Shown: in pieces, positions 3,313 through 9,879 of the stretch
Layout: the number at the start of each line of letters is the position of its first letter
How positions within the stretch are numbered: position 1 is the first letter of the stretch
The notes under the pieces: generated by a model
Seen by the model: only the letters and a program-made list of their open reading frames with translations
Databases searched by the model: none
What the model was told of the DNA's origin: nothing
Source of the DNA: a virus
Lineage: Duplodnaviria > Heunggongvirae > Uroviricota > Caudoviricetes
Strand: one strand, 5' to 3'
Length of the DNA stretch: 32,084 bases
Virus record (IMG/VR): IMGVR_UViG_2802429222_000004
Made by a program: the position numbers and the translations under genes

Positions 3313-3584
3313 GTATTCGTATCGAAATTGGCGAACGTTATGTCGTTACCAGTGACAGCTTTCAGTTTATTCTCCACGAGAAAAAGAGAGCGGAAAGCGG
3401 TAAAAACGCCGGTCAGGAATGGCTGGCGGTGGTTGGTTATTATCCGAAATTAAGCCAGCTCGTTTCCGGCCTGATGCATCACGATATTCTGACCGGAAGC
3501 GCAAAGTCTTTTGCTGATTTAAACGCGCAGGTTGAGCAACTCAGCAGGCGTTGTTCAGAGGCTTTTGGCTCATATGGACGTTAA
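3309..3584 (+). CDS. Early hypothetical protein (P2 orf83 position)
   Basis: 91-aa ORF coupled to the flanking genes. Confidence 0.6.
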   Translation: MSIRIEIGERYVVTSDSFQFILHEKKRAESGKNAGQEWLAVVGYYPKLSQLVSGLMHHDILTGSAKSFADLNAQVEQLSRRCSEAFGSYGR

Positions 3585-5844
3585 AGCCTCCGGGCGTTTT
3601 GTCCCTCCGTCAGCATTTGCCGCAGGCACCGGTAAGGCGTTTACCGGTGCTTATGCATGGAACGCGCCACGCGAGGCTGTCGGGCGCGAAAGACCCCTTA
3701 CACGTGACGAGATGCGTCAGGTGCAAGGTGTTTTATCCACGATTAACCGCCTGCCTTACTTTTTGCGCTCGCTGTTTACTTCACGCTATGACTACATCCG
3801 GCGCAATAAAAGCCCGGTGCACGGGTTTTATTTCCTCACATCCACTTTTCAGCGTCGTTTATGGCCGCGCATTGAGCGTGTGAATCAGCGCCATGAAATG
3901 AACACCGACGCGTCGTTGCTGTTTCTGGCAGAGCGCGACCAGTATGCGCGCCTGCCGGGGATGAATGACAAGGAGCTGAAAAAGTTTGCTGCCCGTATCT
4001 CATCGCAGCTTTTCATGATGTATGAGGAACTCTGCGATGCCTGGGTTGATGCACATGGCGAAAAAGAATCACTGTTTACGGATGAGGCTCAGGATCACCT
4101 GTATGGTCATGTTGCTGGCGCTGCACGAGCTTTCAATATTTCCCCTCTCTACTGGAAAAAATACCGTAAAGGACAGATGACCACGAGGCAGGCATATTCT
4201 GCCATTGCCCGTCTGTTTAACGATGAGTGGTGGACTCATCAGCTTAAAGGCCAGCGTATGCGCTGGCATGAGGCGTTACTGATTGCTGTCGGGGAGGTCA
4301 ATAAAGACCGTTCTCCTTATGCCAGTAAACATGCCATTCGTGATGTGCGTGCGCGCCGCCAGGCAAATCTGGAGTTTCTTAAATCATGTGACCTTGAAAA
4401 CAGGGAAACCGGCGAGCGCATCGACCTTATCAGTAAGGTGATGGGCAGTATTTCTAATCCTGAAATTCGCCGGATGGAGCTGATGAACACCATTGCCGGT
4501 ATTGAGCGTTACGCCGTCGCAGAGGGTGATGTGGGGATGTTTATCACGCTGACCACGCCGTCAAAGTATCACCCGACACGTCAGGTCGGAAAAGGAGAAA
4601 GTAAAACCGTCCAGCTTAATCACGGCTGGAACGATGAGGCATTTAATCCGAAGGATGCGCAGCGTTATCTCTGCCGTATCTGGAGCCTGATGCGCACGGC
4701 ATTCAAGGATAATGATTTACAGGTCTACGGTTTGCGTGTCGTCGAGCCACACCACGACGGAACGCCGCACTGGCATATGATGCTTTTTTGTAATCCACGC
4801 CAGCGTAACCAGATTATCGAAATCATGCGTCGCTATGCGCTCAAAGAGGATGGTAACGAAAGAGGAGCCGCGCGAAACCGTTTTCAGGCAAAACACCTTA
4901 ACCGGGGCGGTGCTGCGGGATATATCGCAAAATACATCTCAAAAAATATCGACGGCTATGCACTGGATGGTCAGCTCGATAACGATACCGGCAGGCCGCT
5001 GAAAGACACTGCAGCGGCTGTTACCGCATGGGCGTCAACGTGGCGTATCCCGCAATTTAAAACGGTTGGCCTGCCGACAATGGGCGCTTACCGTGAACTA
5101 CGCAAATTGCCTCGCGGCGTCAGCATTGCTGATGAGTTTGACGAACGCGTCGAGGCTGCACGCGCCGCCGCAGACAGTGGTGATTTTGCGTTGTATATCA
5201 GCGCGCAGGGTGGGGCAAATGTTCCGCGCGATTGTCAGACTGTCAGGGTTGCCCGTAGTCCGTCGGATGAAGTTAACGAGTACGAGGAAGAAGTCGAGAG
5301 AGTGGTCGGCATTTACGCGCCGCATCTCGGCGCGCGTCATATTCATATCACCAGAACGACGGACTGGCGCATTGTTCCGAAAGTGCCGGTCGTTGAGCCT
5401 TTGACTTTAAAAAGCGGCATCGCCGCGCCTCGGAGTCCTGTCAATAACTGTGGAAAGCTTGCCGACGGTGGCGATCCAGTTATGACACCTACGCCGTCTG
5501 AGCATGCCGCAGCGGTGCTAAATCTTGTCGATGATGGGGTTATTGCATGGGATGACCCCGAAGTTGTGACGGTGCTCAGGAGTGCATTAAAACACGGCGC
5601 GCCGCAGCAAAATCGACAGCAAAGAAGCGATGAGCCATTAAAATCGAATCAGATAGCACCATCAGGGCGAATGACAAAAGCCGAGAGGGCTCAGATTCCG
5701 CGCATCCGCTTCGAACTGGCGCAGCAGGGTATCACGCCGCAGCGGTGGGAACTTCAGGCGCTGGCTCGTGGCGGAATAGTGGTTTATGGCGAAAAAAGAT
5801 TTGTATACCCGATAGCGGACGAGTGGGTGAAGCATGAAGGGTGA
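3574..5844 (+). CDS. A: Rolling-circle replication initiator endonuclease A
   Basis: Large ORF (track 3532..5844) at the position of P2 A. The ATG at 3574 (MDVKASGRF...) gives about 756 aa, close to P2 A (761 aa). The exact start is uncertain. Confidence 0.85.
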   Translation: MDVKASGRFVPPSAFAAGTGKAFTGAYAWNAPREAVGRERPLTRDEMRQVQGVLSTINRLPYFLRSLFTSRYDYIRRNKSPVHGFYFLTSTFQRRLWPRIERVNQRHEMNTDASLLFLAERDQYARLPGMNDKELKKFAARISSQLFMMYEELCDAWVDAHGEKESLFTDEAQDHLYGHVAGAARAFNISPLYWKKYRKGQMTTRQAYSAIARLFNDEWWTHQLKGQRMRWHEALLIAVGEVNKDRSPYASKHAIRDVRARRQANLEFLKSCDLENRETGERIDLISKVMGSISNPEIRRMELMNTIAGIERYAVAEGDVGMFITLTTPSKYHPTRQVGKGESKTVQLNHGWNDEAFNPKDAQRYLCRIWSLMRTAFKDNDLQVYGLRVVEPHHDGTPHWHMMLFCNPRQRNQIIEIMRRYALKEDGNERGAARNRFQAKHLNRGGAAGYIAKYISKNIDGYALDGQLDNDTGRPLKDTAAAVTAWASTWRIPQFKTVGLPTMGAYRELRKLPRGVSIADEFDERVEAARAAADSGDFALYISAQGGANVPRDCQTVRVARSPSDEVNEYEEEVERVVGIYAPHLGARHIHITRTTDWRIVPKVPVVEPLTLKSGIAAPRSPVNNCGKLADGGDPVMTPTPSEHAAAVLNLVDDGVIAWDDPEVVTVLRSALKHGAPQQNRQQRSDEPLKSNQIAPSGRMTKAERAQIPRIRFELAQQGITPQRWELQALARGGIVVYGEKRFVYPIADEWVKHEG

Positions 5845-6170
5845 TTTATATCCATCTAAATCATGATGTTATGATGGCCGTGTGAGTTCTTTTCTGATTG
5901 GGGCTGCGTTCGACGGCTTGAAATGTTGTAAATGCTCATAATCTGGTTTAAAGTGTTTTTATGCCAACGACTAGGAGCATCTCCAGTCATAAATGTTGGC
6001 CTCTACAGGCCTTTATATAGTGTTGCTCTTGTACTGCCTTCTCTTTCGAGAGAAGGTATGTACAAGAAGTAAAGCCTGCGAAGGGAGGGTGTCTGGGGTG
6101 AGGAAAGACTGAGAGTTAAAGCATTCATCTTAGAATCCATTCAACTCAAAAAACAAAAGCTCAGCCAACG
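5845..6170 (+). ncRNA. Putative retron msr-msd non-coding RNA region (boundaries not resolved)
   Basis: About 330 bp of non-coding DNA directly upstream of a retron-sized RT. It contains a 39-nt hairpin at 6028-6066 (stems CTTGTAC/GTACAAG and CCTTCTCT/AGAGAAGG, TTCG loop), a GGCC-TCTACA-GGCC hairpin at 5998-6011, and a -35-like TTGAAA at 5918-5923. Confidence 0.4.
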
Positions 6171-7160
6171 ATGAAACCCCTTAGTCTCGAAAAAGCCTTC
6201 AATATTGCATTCTTCGAAAAAGATTCCTTTCAAAACTTTCTTTCGTTTGAACCATTTCAACAAACTAAATTTATAACCTTTGATGAAAGGTTAATTGCTG
6301 AGCCCACTTCTAAACTAAAAGAGTATCACAAATTCATAAATGAATTTGTTCTTTCATACTTGAAAGTAAATAAGGATGTTGTGTTTTCGTATAGAAAAGG
6401 AAGCAGCACTTATGATGCAGTAAAACTTCACGCCTGTAGTAAGATATTCTTCAATACTGATATTAAAAGCTTTTTCCCATCGATAACTCGTGAATATGCA
6501 CGATCAGTTTTAGTTGATAACTTATCGAACGTTCCCATTTCCGATTTAAATATACACTTGGATAAAATTTTAGATTATATTATTATCGATAATTCGTTGC
6601 CTGTAGGGTTCCCGACATCACCAGCTTTCAGCAATGCATGTTTATATGACTTTGATGTTGAGATGCAGCAATATTGTATTAACCATGAATATATATTCAC
6701 ACGCTATTCAGATGATATTATTATTTCCTCTGAAAATGATGAGGGCTTTGAGAATATTCATTCTGTAGTAAGTGACCTGCTGGGTGAGTTTGGGAAGGGA
6801 CATTTCAAACTAAACTCAGCAAAAACTAAATTGATTAAAAAAGGCAGTAAGATTAAGCTGCTGGGGATGGTTATTTTACCGTCTCAGATAGTCTCTGTTG
6901 ATATTAAAATAAAAAGAAAGCTTGAGCATTTGATTCATTTTTATGTAACGGATAAAGATAAATTTATAGATTCTATAATAAAAGATCCTAAGGTTAAAAC
7001 TAGCGGATTGAATGATAGTGAGATCTTGGAAAAGGGCGTTAATACAGTTTCTGGTCTTTTGAATCATATAAACACAATTGATAAGAGTTATCTCGATAAG
7101 CTAAAGAGAAAATACGGAAATACGATTGTCGATATGCTTTTTTACAAGAATGTAAATTAA
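6171..7160 (+). CDS. Reverse transcriptase, retron-type size (329 aa)
   Basis: RT motifs read directly: TDIKSFFPSI (domain 1/2), LPVGFPTSPAFSNACL (domain 4), and catalytic YSDD within IFTRYSDDIIIS (nt 6705-6716). Low GC compared with the flanking phage genes. Confidence 0.8.
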   Translation: MKPLSLEKAFNIAFFEKDSFQNFLSFEPFQQTKFITFDERLIAEPTSKLKEYHKFINEFVLSYLKVNKDVVFSYRKGSSTYDAVKLHACSKIFFNTDIKSFFPSITREYARSVLVDNLSNVPISDLNIHLDKILDYIIIDNSLPVGFPTSPAFSNACLYDFDVEMQQYCINHEYIFTRYSDDIIISSENDEGFENIHSVVSDLLGEFGKGHFKLNSAKTKLIKKGSKIKLLGMVILPSQIVSVDIKIKRKLEHLIHFYVTDKDKFIDSIIKDPKVKTSGLNDSEILEKGVNTVSGLLNHINTIDKSYLDKLKRKYGNTIVDMLFYKNVN

Positions 7161-7161
7161 A

Positions 7162-8514
7162 ATGAAAATAAACATTGAGATCTCGAAAATCCAGCATGTT
7201 GAACATATGTCATTTGCTATTGATCTTTCTGAAAATAAACTGACTTGCATTGTAGGAAAGAACGGTGCTGGAAAGACAACGCTAATCAAAGCAATTAAAA
7301 ATTTACAATCAGCAGATACATTCATAAAGACATCTTCTAGATATATATTCAATCCTGACAGTAGTATAGTATATAATATTAATGATCAAGATATAGTATA
7401 TGTCTATGATGAGAATTTGAAGGTAATAGATACTAAGCAAATAATTCCAGCAGATATAAAATCCAATCTTTATGTCGAGTTGCCCATTCCTCATGGAATG
7501 AGGTTCAATAACTTCCCAACACTTAGTAAAATTGATACTGAACTTAGAAAAAGTATTGCGTTTGAAAGCTATAGCGTTCCCGAGGATTTGATAAATATAC
7601 TCAATGAGGTATATCAGTCTTCTTCTTACAATAATCTTAAAGCATTTTCTGTAAAAAATGAAATTTTCTATTTCAGATTGAATGAGAACGGAACATACAT
7701 AAGGGAGGATTACTTTAGCTCGGGTGAGTATTTTATTTTGAATTTATTTAGAATGATTGAGCTCAAAAGAAAATTCATTGTCATAGATGAGATAGATATA
7801 TCACTAGACTCTTCGGCGCAAGTCCATCTTATAGCAGTGCTAAGGAAATATTGTCAGAGACACTCGGTGAATATTGTATTCACAACACATTCACTTGCTT
7901 TAATGCAAACGCTGAATGATGATGAATTGTACTATATGTGCGAAGGTGATGCTGGAACTACAATTACAAATCGATCATATAATTATATAAAAAGTACGCT
8001 TTTTGGATTTAAAGGATGGGATAAGTACATTCTTACTGAAGATGAAGTTCTGCAAAATTTCTTAGAATATATAATTAATGCTCCTGGGAGTGATTACTTC
8101 TACGAATATAAAATAATATATGTTGGTGGAGGAACTAATGTCATTGATTTAATGCGTCGTAATGAGAGAGAGAGCTTTCTCACGACTCAACAGAATGTGA
8201 TCTCAGTGTTAGACGGAGATCAATTAGGTCAAAGGCATGCTCGAGGTGAAAATATTTTATGCATACCTTTCCAAAGCGTTGAGAAGGATTTCTATCAAGC
8301 ATACGGCCAAGATGAATCGATCCCGAGAGTTACAACTAGAGGTAACGATAAACTTGATAAGCAAGTTTATCGAGGGGTAGTGAAAACCTATGACAACGGT
8401 TGGGATGAAACTAGGATTTTTGAATACCTTGAGAGGTTAAAGCCTGATGAATGTGAGGCTTTCAGGCAAAAAATTAGAGCATTTCTCCAAAGAAATATTT
8501 CGGCAGAGGGTTGA
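7162..8514 (+). CDS. OLD-family ABC ATPase with C-terminal TOPRIM-like domain (450 aa)
   Basis: Walker A GKNGAGKTT (nt 7255-7281), signature-like FSSGEY, Walker B FIVIDEID, H-loop TTHSLA. The C-terminal half has TOPRIM-like motifs YILTEDE, VGGGTN and VLDGDQ. The start is 2 nt after the RT stop, so the two are one operon. Confidence 0.75.
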   Translation: MKINIEISKIQHVEHMSFAIDLSENKLTCIVGKNGAGKTTLIKAIKNLQSADTFIKTSSRYIFNPDSSIVYNINDQDIVYVYDENLKVIDTKQIIPADIKSNLYVELPIPHGMRFNNFPTLSKIDTELRKSIAFESYSVPEDLINILNEVYQSSSYNNLKAFSVKNEIFYFRLNENGTYIREDYFSSGEYFILNLFRMIELKRKFIVIDEIDISLDSSAQVHLIAVLRKYCQRHSVNIVFTTHSLALMQTLNDDELYYMCEGDAGTTITNRSYNYIKSTLFGFKGWDKYILTEDEVLQNFLEYIINAPGSDYFYEYKIIYVGGGTNVIDLMRRNERESFLTTQQNVISVLDGDQLGQRHARGENILCIPFQSVEKDFYQAYGQDESIPRVTTRGNDKLDKQVYRGVVKTYDNGWDETRIFEYLERLKPDECEAFRQKIRAFLQRNISAEG

Positions 8515-8656
8515 ATATAAGCTTCGGGATCTCATGCCTCTCTATCTGCATGAAATTGCATTTGATAATTCCTATTTTTCTCGTGAACTGTGTCACGTTA
8601 GGCGCAGCTCAGGGCTCATAATGCATCTGCATTAAAACCGCCCCACGAAGCGGGCG

Positions 8657-8675
8657 GGCGAGGCGGGGAAAGCAC
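8657..8675. other. cos site (19-nt cohesive end GGCGAGGCGGGGAAAGCAC)
   Basis: Matches the P2 cohesive-end sequence as I recall it, and lies about 170 bp from the end of Q, as in P2. Confidence 0.6.
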
Positions 8676-8814
8676 TGCGCGCTGGCGGTGGTGCGGATTT
8701 TATTTTTTCAGCGTCTGAGCGCGTCGTGACGGCGTTTAGATTGTGCGCCGGGGCATTGGTGTGTCTGCGGGGTGTTTTGTGCGGTGGTGAGCGTGTGAGG
8801 TCGTGATGACGGGA

Positions 8815-8839
8815 TATAAAAAAGCCGCCCGCAGGCGGC
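8815..8839 (-). terminator. Rho-independent terminator after Q
   Basis: On the minus strand: GCCGCC-TGCG-GGCGGC hairpin followed by TTTTTT, immediately downstream of the Q stop. Confidence 0.7.
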
Positions 8840-8844
8840 GATGT

Positions 8845-9879
8845 TCAGCCGTTGTCAGTGTCCAGTGAGTAGTTTTTAAAGCGGATGACCTCCTGACCGA
8901 GCCAGCCGTTTATCTCGCGGATCCTGTCCTGTAACGGGATAAGCTCATTGCGGACAAAGACCTTTGCCACTTTCTCAATATCGCCCAGTGACCCGACGTT
9001 CTCCGGCTTGCCCCCCATCAACTGAAAGGGGATGCGGTGCGCGTCCAGCAGGTCAGCGGCGCTGACTTTTTTGATATTAAAAAAATCGTCCTTCGTTGCC
9101 ACTTCACTGAGCGGGATAATTTTAATGCCGTCGGCTTTTCCCTGTGGGGCGTAGAGAAACAGGTTTTTAAAGTTGTTGCGGCCTTTCGACTTAACCATGT
9201 TTTCGCGAAGCATTTCGATATCATTGCGATCCTGCACGGCATCGGTGACGTACATGATGTATCCGGCATGTGCGCCATTTTCGTAATACTTGCGGCGGAA
9301 CAGCGTGGCCGACTCATTCAGCCAGGCAGAGTTAAGGGCGCTGAGATATTCCGGCAGGCCGTACAGCTCCTGATTAATATCCGGCTCCAGCAGGTGAAAC
9401 ACGGAGCCGGTCGCGAAGGCTGTCGGCTCGTTGAAGGACGGCACCCACCAGTAAACATCCTCCTCCACGCCACGGCGGGTATATTTTGCCGGTGAGGTTT
9501 CCAGTCTGATGACCTTACCGGTGGTGCTGTAACGCTTTTCCAGAAACGCATTGCCGAACACCAGAAAATCCAGCACAAAGCGGCTGAAATCCTGCTGGGA
9601 AAGCCACGGGTGCGGGATAAACGTTGAAGCCAGAATATTGCGTTTAACGTAAATCGGCGAGCTGTGATGCACGGCAGCACGCAGGCTTTTTGCCAGACCG
9701 GTAAAGCTGACCGGCGGTTCATACCATCTGCCGTTACTGATGCACTCGACGTAATCCAGAATGTCACGGCGGTCGAGTACCGGCACCGGCTCACCAAAGG
9801 TGAATGCCTCCATTTTCGGGGCGCTGGCGGTCATTTTTTTTGCCGCAGGTTGCGGTGTTTTCCCTTTTTTCTTGCTCAT
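8845..9879 (-). CDS. Q: Portal protein Q (344 aa)
   Basis: 344 aa, the same length as P2 Q. Leftward, adjacent to cos, overlapping the terminase gene by 1 nt. Confidence 0.9.
   Translation of the reverse strand: MSKKKGKTPQPAAKKMTASAPKMEAFTFGEPVPVLDRRDILDYVECISNGRWYEPPVSFTGLAKSLRAAVHHSSPIYVKRNILASTFIPHPWLSQQDFSRFVLDFLVFGNAFLEKRYSTTGKVIRLETSPAKYTRRGVEEDVYWWVPSFNEPTAFATGSVFHLLEPDINQELYGLPEYLSALNSAWLNESATLFRRKYYENGAHAGYIMYVTDAVQDRNDIEMLRENMVKSKGRNNFKNLFLYAPQGKADGIKIIPLSEVATKDDFFNIKKVSAADLLDAHRIPFQLMGGKPENVGSLGDIEKVAKVFVRNELIPLQDRIREINGWLGQEVIRFKNYSLDTDNG

Follow-up and report, generated by a model that had tools for sequence, protein, structure and literature searches.

Retrons that combine a reverse transcriptase (RT) with an OLD-like effector fall into two subtypes, I-B1 and I-B2 (Mestre et al. 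2020, PMC7736814), which correspond to the Class 3B and Class 3A OLD proteins, respectively (review PMC10568477). In I-B1, a clade 1 RT is followed by an effector with the signatures EDxxL in motif IV and DxD in motif V, whereas in I-B2, exemplified by Eco8, the effector lies upstream of a clade 3 RT and carries EGxxE and DxD (PMC7736814). Eco8 forms a 4:4:4 complex of RT, msDNA (multicopy single-stranded DNA) and OLD protein, which is activated once SSB, the phage's protein that binds single-stranded DNA, displaces the msDNA (PMC12916289). Under I-B1, no described retron is entered in the table of Mestre et al. (PMC7736814). Here we analyze a cassette in a P2-like prophage of Escherichia coli (IMG/VR record IMGVR_UViG_2802429222_000004; the window is the whole stretch of 32,084 nucleotides), in which a non-coding RNA (ncRNA) gene, an RT gene and a gene for an ATPase-TOPRIM protein lie between replication gene A and cos. 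In our view, the cassette is likely a type I-B1 retron with all its parts, which rides in the gpA-cos hotspot as lysogenic-conversion cargo and works by the mechanism proposed below.

Several other systems frame the comparison. Type I-A retrons (Eco7/Ec78 and Eco4/Ec83) comprise an RT, the ATPase PtuA and the HNH protein PtuB; their nuclease is thus a separate protein, whereas that of the cassette is a fused TOPRIM domain. Canonical retron RNAs are closed by terminal a1/a2 repeats that enclose msr and msd, with the branching guanosine adjoining a1, and the type I-A ncRNAs have such a stem together with a branching and an opposing guanosine. The slot occupied by the cassette is, in phage P2, the site of orf91, tin and old. 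P2 Old (Class 1 OLD), which shares this slot with Tin, is likewise an ABC-ATPase/TOPRIM nuclease, and serves phage interference. It differs in its length (586 amino acids), in acting alone and in being encoded on the opposite strand without an RT or ncRNA partner, and BLASTP aligned it with the cassette effector in the P-loop region only (25 bits, E 0.004). Examples of I-B1 retrons are Mestre-308 from Atopomonas (Pseudomonas) hussainii and Mestre-314 from Burkholderia pseudomallei; in our literature search, no E. coli representative turned up that had been named or tested.

The tin/old slot holds a retron-type RT and an OLD-type effector

The similarity to P2-like phages ends at about position 5811 and picks up again at about 8620, and hence the cassette takes up the entire tin/old slot. 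It is a variable insert between gene A and cos/portal gene Q, as expected for cargo of the P2 gpA-gpQ hotspot, which carries defence systems, retrons among them (PMC9122126, PMC13586616). Its two coding genes have a GC content of 33%, compared to 54% in the remaining window. Both start with ATG and are read in the same direction, with a single base separating the TAA stop of the RT gene (7158-7160) from the effector start codon. A search of a collection of phage genomes yielded no DNA match to the cassette; at the protein level, nothing matched the effector, and the RT had remote matches only (~25% identity). According to a citing paper, Odegrip (2006) reported a different RT in this P2 locus, the variable locus of P2-EC30, which may or may not belong to the present family. 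A first-pass annotation, made from the sequence alone, had described a co-oriented, tightly coupled pair of a 329-residue RT and a 450-residue protein in the slot where P2 carries tin and old, had named this slot a known hotspot of P2-like prophages and had judged the RT by its size to be of retron rather than Abi (abortive infection) or DRT (defence-associated RT) type. The intact reading frames and the borders of the slot agree with this description, as do the published hotspot and the profile searches reported below. An ncRNA gene under its own promoter, a retron-type RT and a 450-residue ATPase/TOPRIM protein, all linked and intact, make up the cassette.

The translation of the RT gene contains the motifs DIKSFFPSITRE, SLPVGFPTSPAFSNA and TRYSDDIIIS, in which YSDD spans residues 179-182. 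Across 24 RT homologues, R178, Y179, D181 and D182 are invariant. The PADLOC model RT_I-B (PDLC02937) aligned end to end (residues 3-328) with 365 bits, and a second RT_I-B model gave 115 bits; in the PADLOC ranking, RT_I-B was followed by the II-A and I-A models. Pfam RVT_1 scored 68.6 bits, and the top NCBIfam match, retron_St85_RT, reached 177.6 bits, below its cut-off of 235. The DRT models Drt2 and Drt3a and the group II intron models scored 40-45 bits. The best matches in PADLOC, NCBIfam and the PDB were retron RTs throughout, and the nearest solved structures were those of retron RTs of type I-A (E between 3e-22 and 1e-19), compared to 4e-8 for the Eco8 RT. Judged by these motifs and profiles, the protein is a retron-type RT whose YxDD catalytic site is intact.

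The effector translation carries VGKNGAGKTTL, KFIVIDEIDISLD, YILTEDEVL and SVLDGDQL. In its ATPase part, the Walker A motif spans G32-T40, followed by the ABC signature S187-G-E189, the Walker B residues D209-E210 and the H-loop residue H243; in the TOPRIM part, motif IV is E293-D294-x-x-L297 (EDEVL) and motif V is D351-G-D353. A comparison of 48 homologues shows no variation in Walker A, the ABC signature, Walker B, the H-loop, E293 or D351-G-D353, and at least 90% conservation of D294 and L297. The PADLOC model ATPase-Toprim_I-B (PDLC02914) matched end to end with 595 bits. Pfam returned ABC/AAA ATPase families, and the AriA, PtuA and GajA models gave weak matches. A profile search aligned the P-loop and ABC-signature stretches only, and a sequence search of the PDB returned nothing at 1e-5. 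With an ABC ATPase at the N-terminus and, at the C-terminus, a TOPRIM domain that bears the catalytic glutamate and DxD, the fold is that of an OLD-type ATPase plus TOPRIM protein. All the RT, Walker and TOPRIM-like motifs quoted in the first-pass annotation are thus in the translations, and its view of the pair as a retron with an OLD-type effector is borne out by full-length PADLOC I-B matches to both proteins. A degraded RT gene, which it had considered, is at odds with the intact reading frame, the invariant catalytic residues and the purifying selection described below.

The order of the genes, RT then effector, together with the motifs TEDEVL and DGD, assigns the cassette to subtype I-B1. 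An ABC ATPase with TOPRIM, EDxxL and DxD follows the RT, and the nearest solved RTs and the PADLOC order serve as a proxy placing the RT in clade 1 (with types I-A and II-A1) as opposed to clade 3; an upstream OLD gene, EGxxE and a clade 3 RT, as in I-B2, were not found. On sequence criteria, the cassette is therefore a member of the catalogued subtype I-B1 (Class 3B OLD), not a new kind of system and not an I-B2 retron like Eco8. This settles the alternative left by the first-pass annotation, described subtype or new variant, in favour of the former. With the I-B1 retrons, the cassette shares the order of ncRNA, RT and ATPase-TOPRIM, the EDxxL and DxD motifs and the full-length PADLOC I-B matches. 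With Mestre-308 it also shares the ncRNA 5' domain, as the ncRNA of that retron (PMC10849725 supplement) contains CATGTCAGCGACTAGGAGCATCTCCAGTC...CCTCTAG; the Atopomonas hussainii homologues are 45% (RT) and 50% (effector) identical. We see no defining difference from the I-B1 relatives, most of which lie elsewhere in the chromosome, whereas the cassette sits in the P2-like hotspot of E. coli.

A conserved ncRNA with its own promoter precedes the RT gene

The stretch upstream of the RT gene (5845-6170, 326 nucleotides) folds more stably than shuffled sequences (z = -2.78, 0 of 100 as good). The first-pass annotation had noted about 330 base pairs of structured non-coding DNA here, which undersold a stretch that contains a conserved ncRNA. 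An Rfam scan of 5400-9000 at E<=1 returned no family. Between E. coli and Photorhabdus, the upstream stretch is far better conserved than the proteins, which are 55-64% identical, and an nhmmer profile built from it found 63 loci. A scan of species-representative genomes yielded 326 relatives, of which 80 related loci were fetched. A covariance model of the 5' domain (R1) detected this domain beside the RT in 79 of the 80 loci, and its sole match in the window was at 5960-6007 (68.3 bits, E 1.5e-13).

The 5' domain is built around a stem, P1, formed by 5963-5968 with 5995-6000. P1 encloses an invariant hairpin, GACUAGGAG-CAU-CUCCAGUC (5969-5988), and its 3' strand runs into a conserved CCUCUAC motif (6000-6006). 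All six pairs of P1 show changes on both sides, giving a covariation score reached by none of 500 shuffles, and 92% of cells are paired, compared to 19-44% when the partner is slid. The inner hairpin, too, is backed by covariation. Directly 3' of the P1 5' strand, G5969 is invariant in 46 of 46 sequences and is predicted to pair with C5988. We used this guanosine to anchor an upstream logo of 71 non-redundant loci, which displays TTG at -44 to -42, TAnAnT at -20 to -15 and C/A at -9/-8. The promoter thus keeps a fixed distance from the invariant guanosine across these loci, and in the window we infer that transcription starts at A5961, two nucleotides ahead of P1.

A linker connects CCUCUAC with a long, msd-like hairpin, whose arms are 6027-6034/6060-6067 and 6037-6044/6049-6056, with a candidate extension formed by CAGGC (6006-6010) and GCCUG (6074-6078). 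RNAalifold reported compensatory pairs in this hairpin. Its sequence is variable, and what is kept is its position and a YUAC...GUAR base: 68 of the 80 loci have a hairpin of at least 10 pairs in the same place with another sequence, with medians of 18 pairs and 42 nucleotides in 61 non-redundant loci. As in retrons, a structured ncRNA with msr-like and long msd-like hairpins thus adjoins the RT gene. The spacing from this hairpin to the RT gene ranges from less than 20 to about 400 nucleotides, and a promoter scan of the spacer in the window marked a putative site, CTGAGA-16-TAGAAT (6109-6136). Elsewhere, pyrimidine-rich tandem repeats were seen in the spacer, namely (CTCCAG)n in Pseudomonas azerbaijanoccidentalis (L020, ~3700-3800) and (GCACTCTCA)n in Shewanella ulleungensis (L031, ~3680-3800).

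In 17 of the 80 loci, mostly from Betaproteobacteria, the ncRNA gene lies on the strand opposite to the RT gene and diverges from it, which argues that the ncRNA is a transcription unit of its own. These divergent genes (L019, L027, L030, L036, L042, L047, L055, L056, L062, L066, L068, L071, L074, L076, L078, L079 and L080) are found on the minus strand about 60-290 nucleotides upstream of the RT start, mostly at 60-130 nucleotides. The base of their long hairpin, UCUAC/GUAGA, resembles the upstream CCUCUA motif, and alternative pairings are possible in this subgroup.

Two further features of the RNA concern the P1 region. In a simple scan, GGCC-UCUACA-GGCC (5998-6011) followed by UUUAUAU resembles a terminator that overlaps the P1 3' strand and CCUCUAC, and the equivalent of the U-rich run past about 6011 is conserved in many loci; this element could be an alternative fold competing with P1. 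Moreover, GCCAACG, which comprises the P1 5' strand and the invariant guanosine (5963-5969), recurs at 6164-6170 directly before the RT start codon, so that the P1 3' strand could pair with the translation-initiation region of the RT. Kluyvera has GUUAACG before the RT start, where the pairing is kept by wobble. In three enteric loci only, the P1 3' strand can pair with the ribosome-binding region of the RT, and this feature is not general.

Joint conservation of the three parts in Gamma- and Betaproteobacteria

Downstream of the RT, each of the 80 loci has an effector homologue, which is the direct neighbour in 79. At the remaining locus, in a metagenome-assembled genome of Cardiobacteriales (L043, 4930-6287), about 1.3 kb lie between the RT and the effector homologue and the ncRNA model has no match; this locus may represent an insertion or a decayed copy. 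Together with the covariance-model result, these data show that ncRNA, RT and effector are conserved as a unit across Gamma- and Betaproteobacteria. A gpA homologue was found near the cassette in only four of the 80 loci, plus the copy of strain LR-45, indicating a mobile module that is not bound to P2.

Among complete E. coli genomes, the cassette occurs at an identity of at least 98% in 10 of 5426, in all cases on the chromosome, where the genes carry only the annotations 'reverse transcriptase family protein' and 'AAA family ATPase'. The same gpA-portal slot is used in E. coli LR-45 and A15 and in Kluyvera. In LR-45, the P2-like prophage lies between pflA and pflB (L001/L084, NZ_AP027532.1, ~1466.7-1499.2 kb) and its cassette is 100% identical; this prophage has two extra hypothetical cargo genes, not present in the window prophage, in the gaps between virion morphogenesis and baseplate V and between tail fibre assembly and tail sheath, so that the window does not derive from LR-45. 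Set against an E. coli copy of 98% identity, the RT gene differs by 24 nucleotides and 5 amino acids and the effector gene by 22 nucleotides and 8 amino acids, and the only change in the ncRNA core falls into the hairpin loop. Both protein-coding genes are under purifying selection. The coordinates of the cassette and its neighbours are compiled in Table 1.

Table 1. Parts of the cassette and the genes and sites that border it, with positions in the window.
Feature	Position	Strand	Basis or remark
P2 replication gene A (gpA)	3532..5844	+	Pfam Phage_GPA, 409 bits; left border of the slot
ncRNA promoter, sigma-70 type	5926..5954	+	-35 TTGTAA (5926-5931), 17-nucleotide spacer, -10 TAAAGT (5949-5954)
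ncRNA 5' domain	5961..6006	+	Covariance model R1, covariation
Long msd-like hairpin	6023..6072	+	Base UUGC/GUAA; inverted repeats I5 and I6
ncRNA-RT spacer	6074..6170	+	Purine-rich; promoter scan, motif positions
Retron RT, 329 amino acids	6171..7160	+	PADLOC, Pfam, solved relatives
Effector, 450 amino acids, ABC ATPase fused to OLD-type TOPRIM	7162..8514	+	
P2 cos 19-mer GGCGAGGCGGGGAAAGCAC	8657..8675	+	Identical to cosR of phage P2 (NC_001895); right border of the slot
Portal gene (Q)	8845-9879	-	Downstream of cos

The ncRNA departs from the canonical retron RNA

The ncRNA is the most unusual part of the cassette, and some observations on it count against a complete type I-B1 retron with the mechanism proposed below. 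Inverted repeats corresponding to a1/a2 were not found by four tests of the 5' and 3' flanks. RNAduplex predictions for the flanks of seven close relatives gave long duplexes that were inconsistent with each other, matched and mismatched flanks differed only weakly in duplex energy in a comparison confounded by GC content, the best contiguous helix joining the linker to the 3' flank averaged a z of 0.3, and the complement of CCUCUAC was no commoner than in shuffles. In the window, the sole a1/a2-like pair is a 7-nucleotide A/U-rich one (5954-5960/6149-6155), whose 5' arm lies upstream of the predicted transcription start. As this start would be two nucleotides before P1, there is no room for an a1 element. 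Short, irregular or low-complexity a1/a2 pairings could have been missed by the tests.

Published data on the two I-B1 examples point in the same direction. In the census of Khan et al. (PMC10849725), the RT and predicted ncRNA of Mestre-308 and Mestre-314 were assayed, and both gave 0 RT-DNA by polyacrylamide gel electrophoresis (PAGE). Sequencing returned no reads for Mestre-314, and for Mestre-308 a complementary DNA (cDNA) of about 116 nucleotides (PMC10849725) that covers nearly the whole ncRNA including the msr-like domain. This cDNA starts just 3' of the hairpin GUAA, runs across hairpin and linker, takes in all of the P1 domain and reaches the third nucleotide of the natural transcript, its reads crossing the equivalent of G5969. 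Exonuclease trimming could hide its true start. By analogy, a cDNA made from the window would have about 5963-6073 as its template. The synthetic ncRNA used for Mestre-314 starts after the CCUCUC motif and is devoid of the conserved 5' domain (PMC10849725 supplement, Retron Terminal 314), which may be why it gave no RT-DNA. As the census constructs lacked the effector and had a non-native 5' end, their negative results may be technical.

The proteins and the literature add to these reservations. In region X, the RT has AVKLH where the solved type I-A RT has NALAH (consensus NAxxH), and in region Y it has LLG in place of the canonical VTG. The residues retained are H87 and G232 only; both are invariant in the family, and the histidine and glycine are the most conserved residues of the region X/Y motifs (Mestre et al., PMC7736814). 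A Pfam search with the C-terminal 181 residues of the effector, the TOPRIM domain, matched nothing at E<=10. In our literature search, we found no phage-defence test of an I-B1 retron, no solved I-B1 structure and no demonstrated I-B1 msDNA.

Given these departures, the textbook scheme may not hold for how reverse transcription is primed or for how much cDNA is present before infection. We give less than even odds to cDNA synthesis or its priming being non-canonical or, like that of type VI retrons, set off by infection; in type VI, reverse transcription has been proposed to be the regulated or triggering step (10.1101/2025.10.22.683967). It is similarly doubtful, though conceivable, that I-B1 ncRNAs in general are independent transcripts that begin at the RT-binding stem, lack a1/a2, yield little cDNA before infection and are copied almost over their entire length. 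In the strongest rival to our reading, the cassette would be an I-B1 retron with a separate ncRNA starting at P1 and devoid of a1/a2, in which priming occurs 3' of the long hairpin and synthesis runs nearly to the RNA 5' end. With cDNA scarce or absent before infection, reverse transcription would be the regulated or triggering step and the cDNA would not be a standing antitoxin. The promoter logo, which places the start two nucleotides before P1, the divergent ncRNA genes in 17 of 80 loci, the flank tests that found no conserved closing duplex, the absence of RT-DNA by PAGE for Mestre-308 and Mestre-314 and the Mestre-308 cDNA that runs through the P1 domain are all consistent with it, and a retron type without baseline msDNA provides a precedent (10.1101/2025.10.22.683967). 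The technical limits of the census constructs count against it, as do short or low-complexity a1/a2 repeats that could slip past our tests, a weakly positive test of upstream against downstream duplexes, which may reflect GC matching, and the canonical behaviour of the solved clade 1 RTs. On balance, we regard this route as rather unlikely.

Discussion

Our preferred reading remains a complete type I-B1 retron that defends the lysogen. We deduce its mechanism by analogy with type I-A (Eco7/Ec78, Ec83) and I-B2 (Eco8) retrons. The RT would bind the 5' domain of the ncRNA and copy the region of the long hairpin into cDNA, and the resulting RT-RNA/cDNA particle would hold the ATPase-TOPRIM protein, as an oligomer, in an inactive state. 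Binding, modification or degradation of the cDNA by a phage product would then free the ATP-dependent nuclease, whose damage to nucleic acid would abort the infection, with the infected cell dying or arresting. In this way, the lysogen population and the prophage within it would be protected. As for Eco8, the effector is probably an abortive-infection nuclease restrained by an RT-nucleic acid particle.

Alternatively, the cassette might mainly serve the prophage, either as an addiction module for the lysogen or as a weapon against satellites and other temperate phages. It occupies the site of P2 old and tin, both narrow interference genes, of which Old acts on lambda, and its rarity (10 of 5426 complete genomes of E. 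coli, always on the chromosome) would fit such a role. Retrons are described in the literature as tripartite toxin-antitoxin systems. However, most relatives lie outside P2-like contexts, gpA being near the cassette in few loci, which points to a general mobile defence module, and the characterised retron types all defend against several lytic phages. We therefore find a role confined to the prophage distinctly unlikely.

Eco8 and the cassette share a common concept, a retron RT combined with an ABC-ATPase/TOPRIM effector of the OLD family, and the cassette could be conceived as an I-B2 (Class 3A OLD) retron of the Eco8 kind, with phage SSB as its signal exactly as in Eco8. The two systems differ in several respects. 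The Eco8 RT belongs to clade 3 and that of the cassette to clade 1, an affinity reflected in the E value of 4e-8 for the Eco8 RT against 3e-22 for a type I-A RT, and in the mere 115 bits of the second PADLOC RT_I-B model. The effector gene lies upstream of the RT in Eco8 and downstream in the cassette, motif IV reads EGxxE in the former and EDxxL in the latter, and the OLD chain of Eco8 has 738 residues, compared to 450. The effectors have no detectable sequence similarity at E 1e-5, the cassette effector having no PDB match at this threshold, and the ncRNAs differ. I-B2 membership is contradicted by gene order, EDxxL and RT affinity, and we consider an Eco8-like reading highly improbable; a trigger by SSB common to both systems is possible. 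Equally improbable is a non-retron pair, in which a DRT/Abi-type RT happens to adjoin an independent ATPase-nuclease of OLD, Gabija, PARIS or Septu-like type. The weak effector matches to AriA, PtuA and GajA, the lack of a demonstrated I-B1 msDNA in the literature and the different RT that Odegrip (2006) reportedly found in this P2 locus might point to it. We rejected it on the basis of model scores (about 40 bits for Drt2 and Drt3a, compared to 365 for retron I-B), the co-occurrence of RT, effector and a specific structured ncRNA in essentially all loci and a slot without room for a GajB, AriB or PtuB partner gene.

The cassette provides an E. coli-native example of the I-B1 subtype of OLD retrons. 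Being compact (~2.7 kb), located in a well-understood prophage hotspot and apparently equipped with its own promoters, the cassette is directly testable in a standard host with standard coliphages. It could show whether an RT-RNA/cDNA particle controls a 'minimal' OLD nuclease of 450 residues, as it does in Eco8, and whether the unusual architecture of the ncRNA reflects a different start of reverse transcription. Should the non-canonical route prove true, the family would offer a new mode of priming and termination, or an infection-induced reverse transcription, coupled to a minimal 450-residue OLD nuclease. If the mechanism is canonical, one more retron subtype would be covered, and the cassette would be a further illustration of the exchange of prophage-borne immunity at the P2 tin/old slot.

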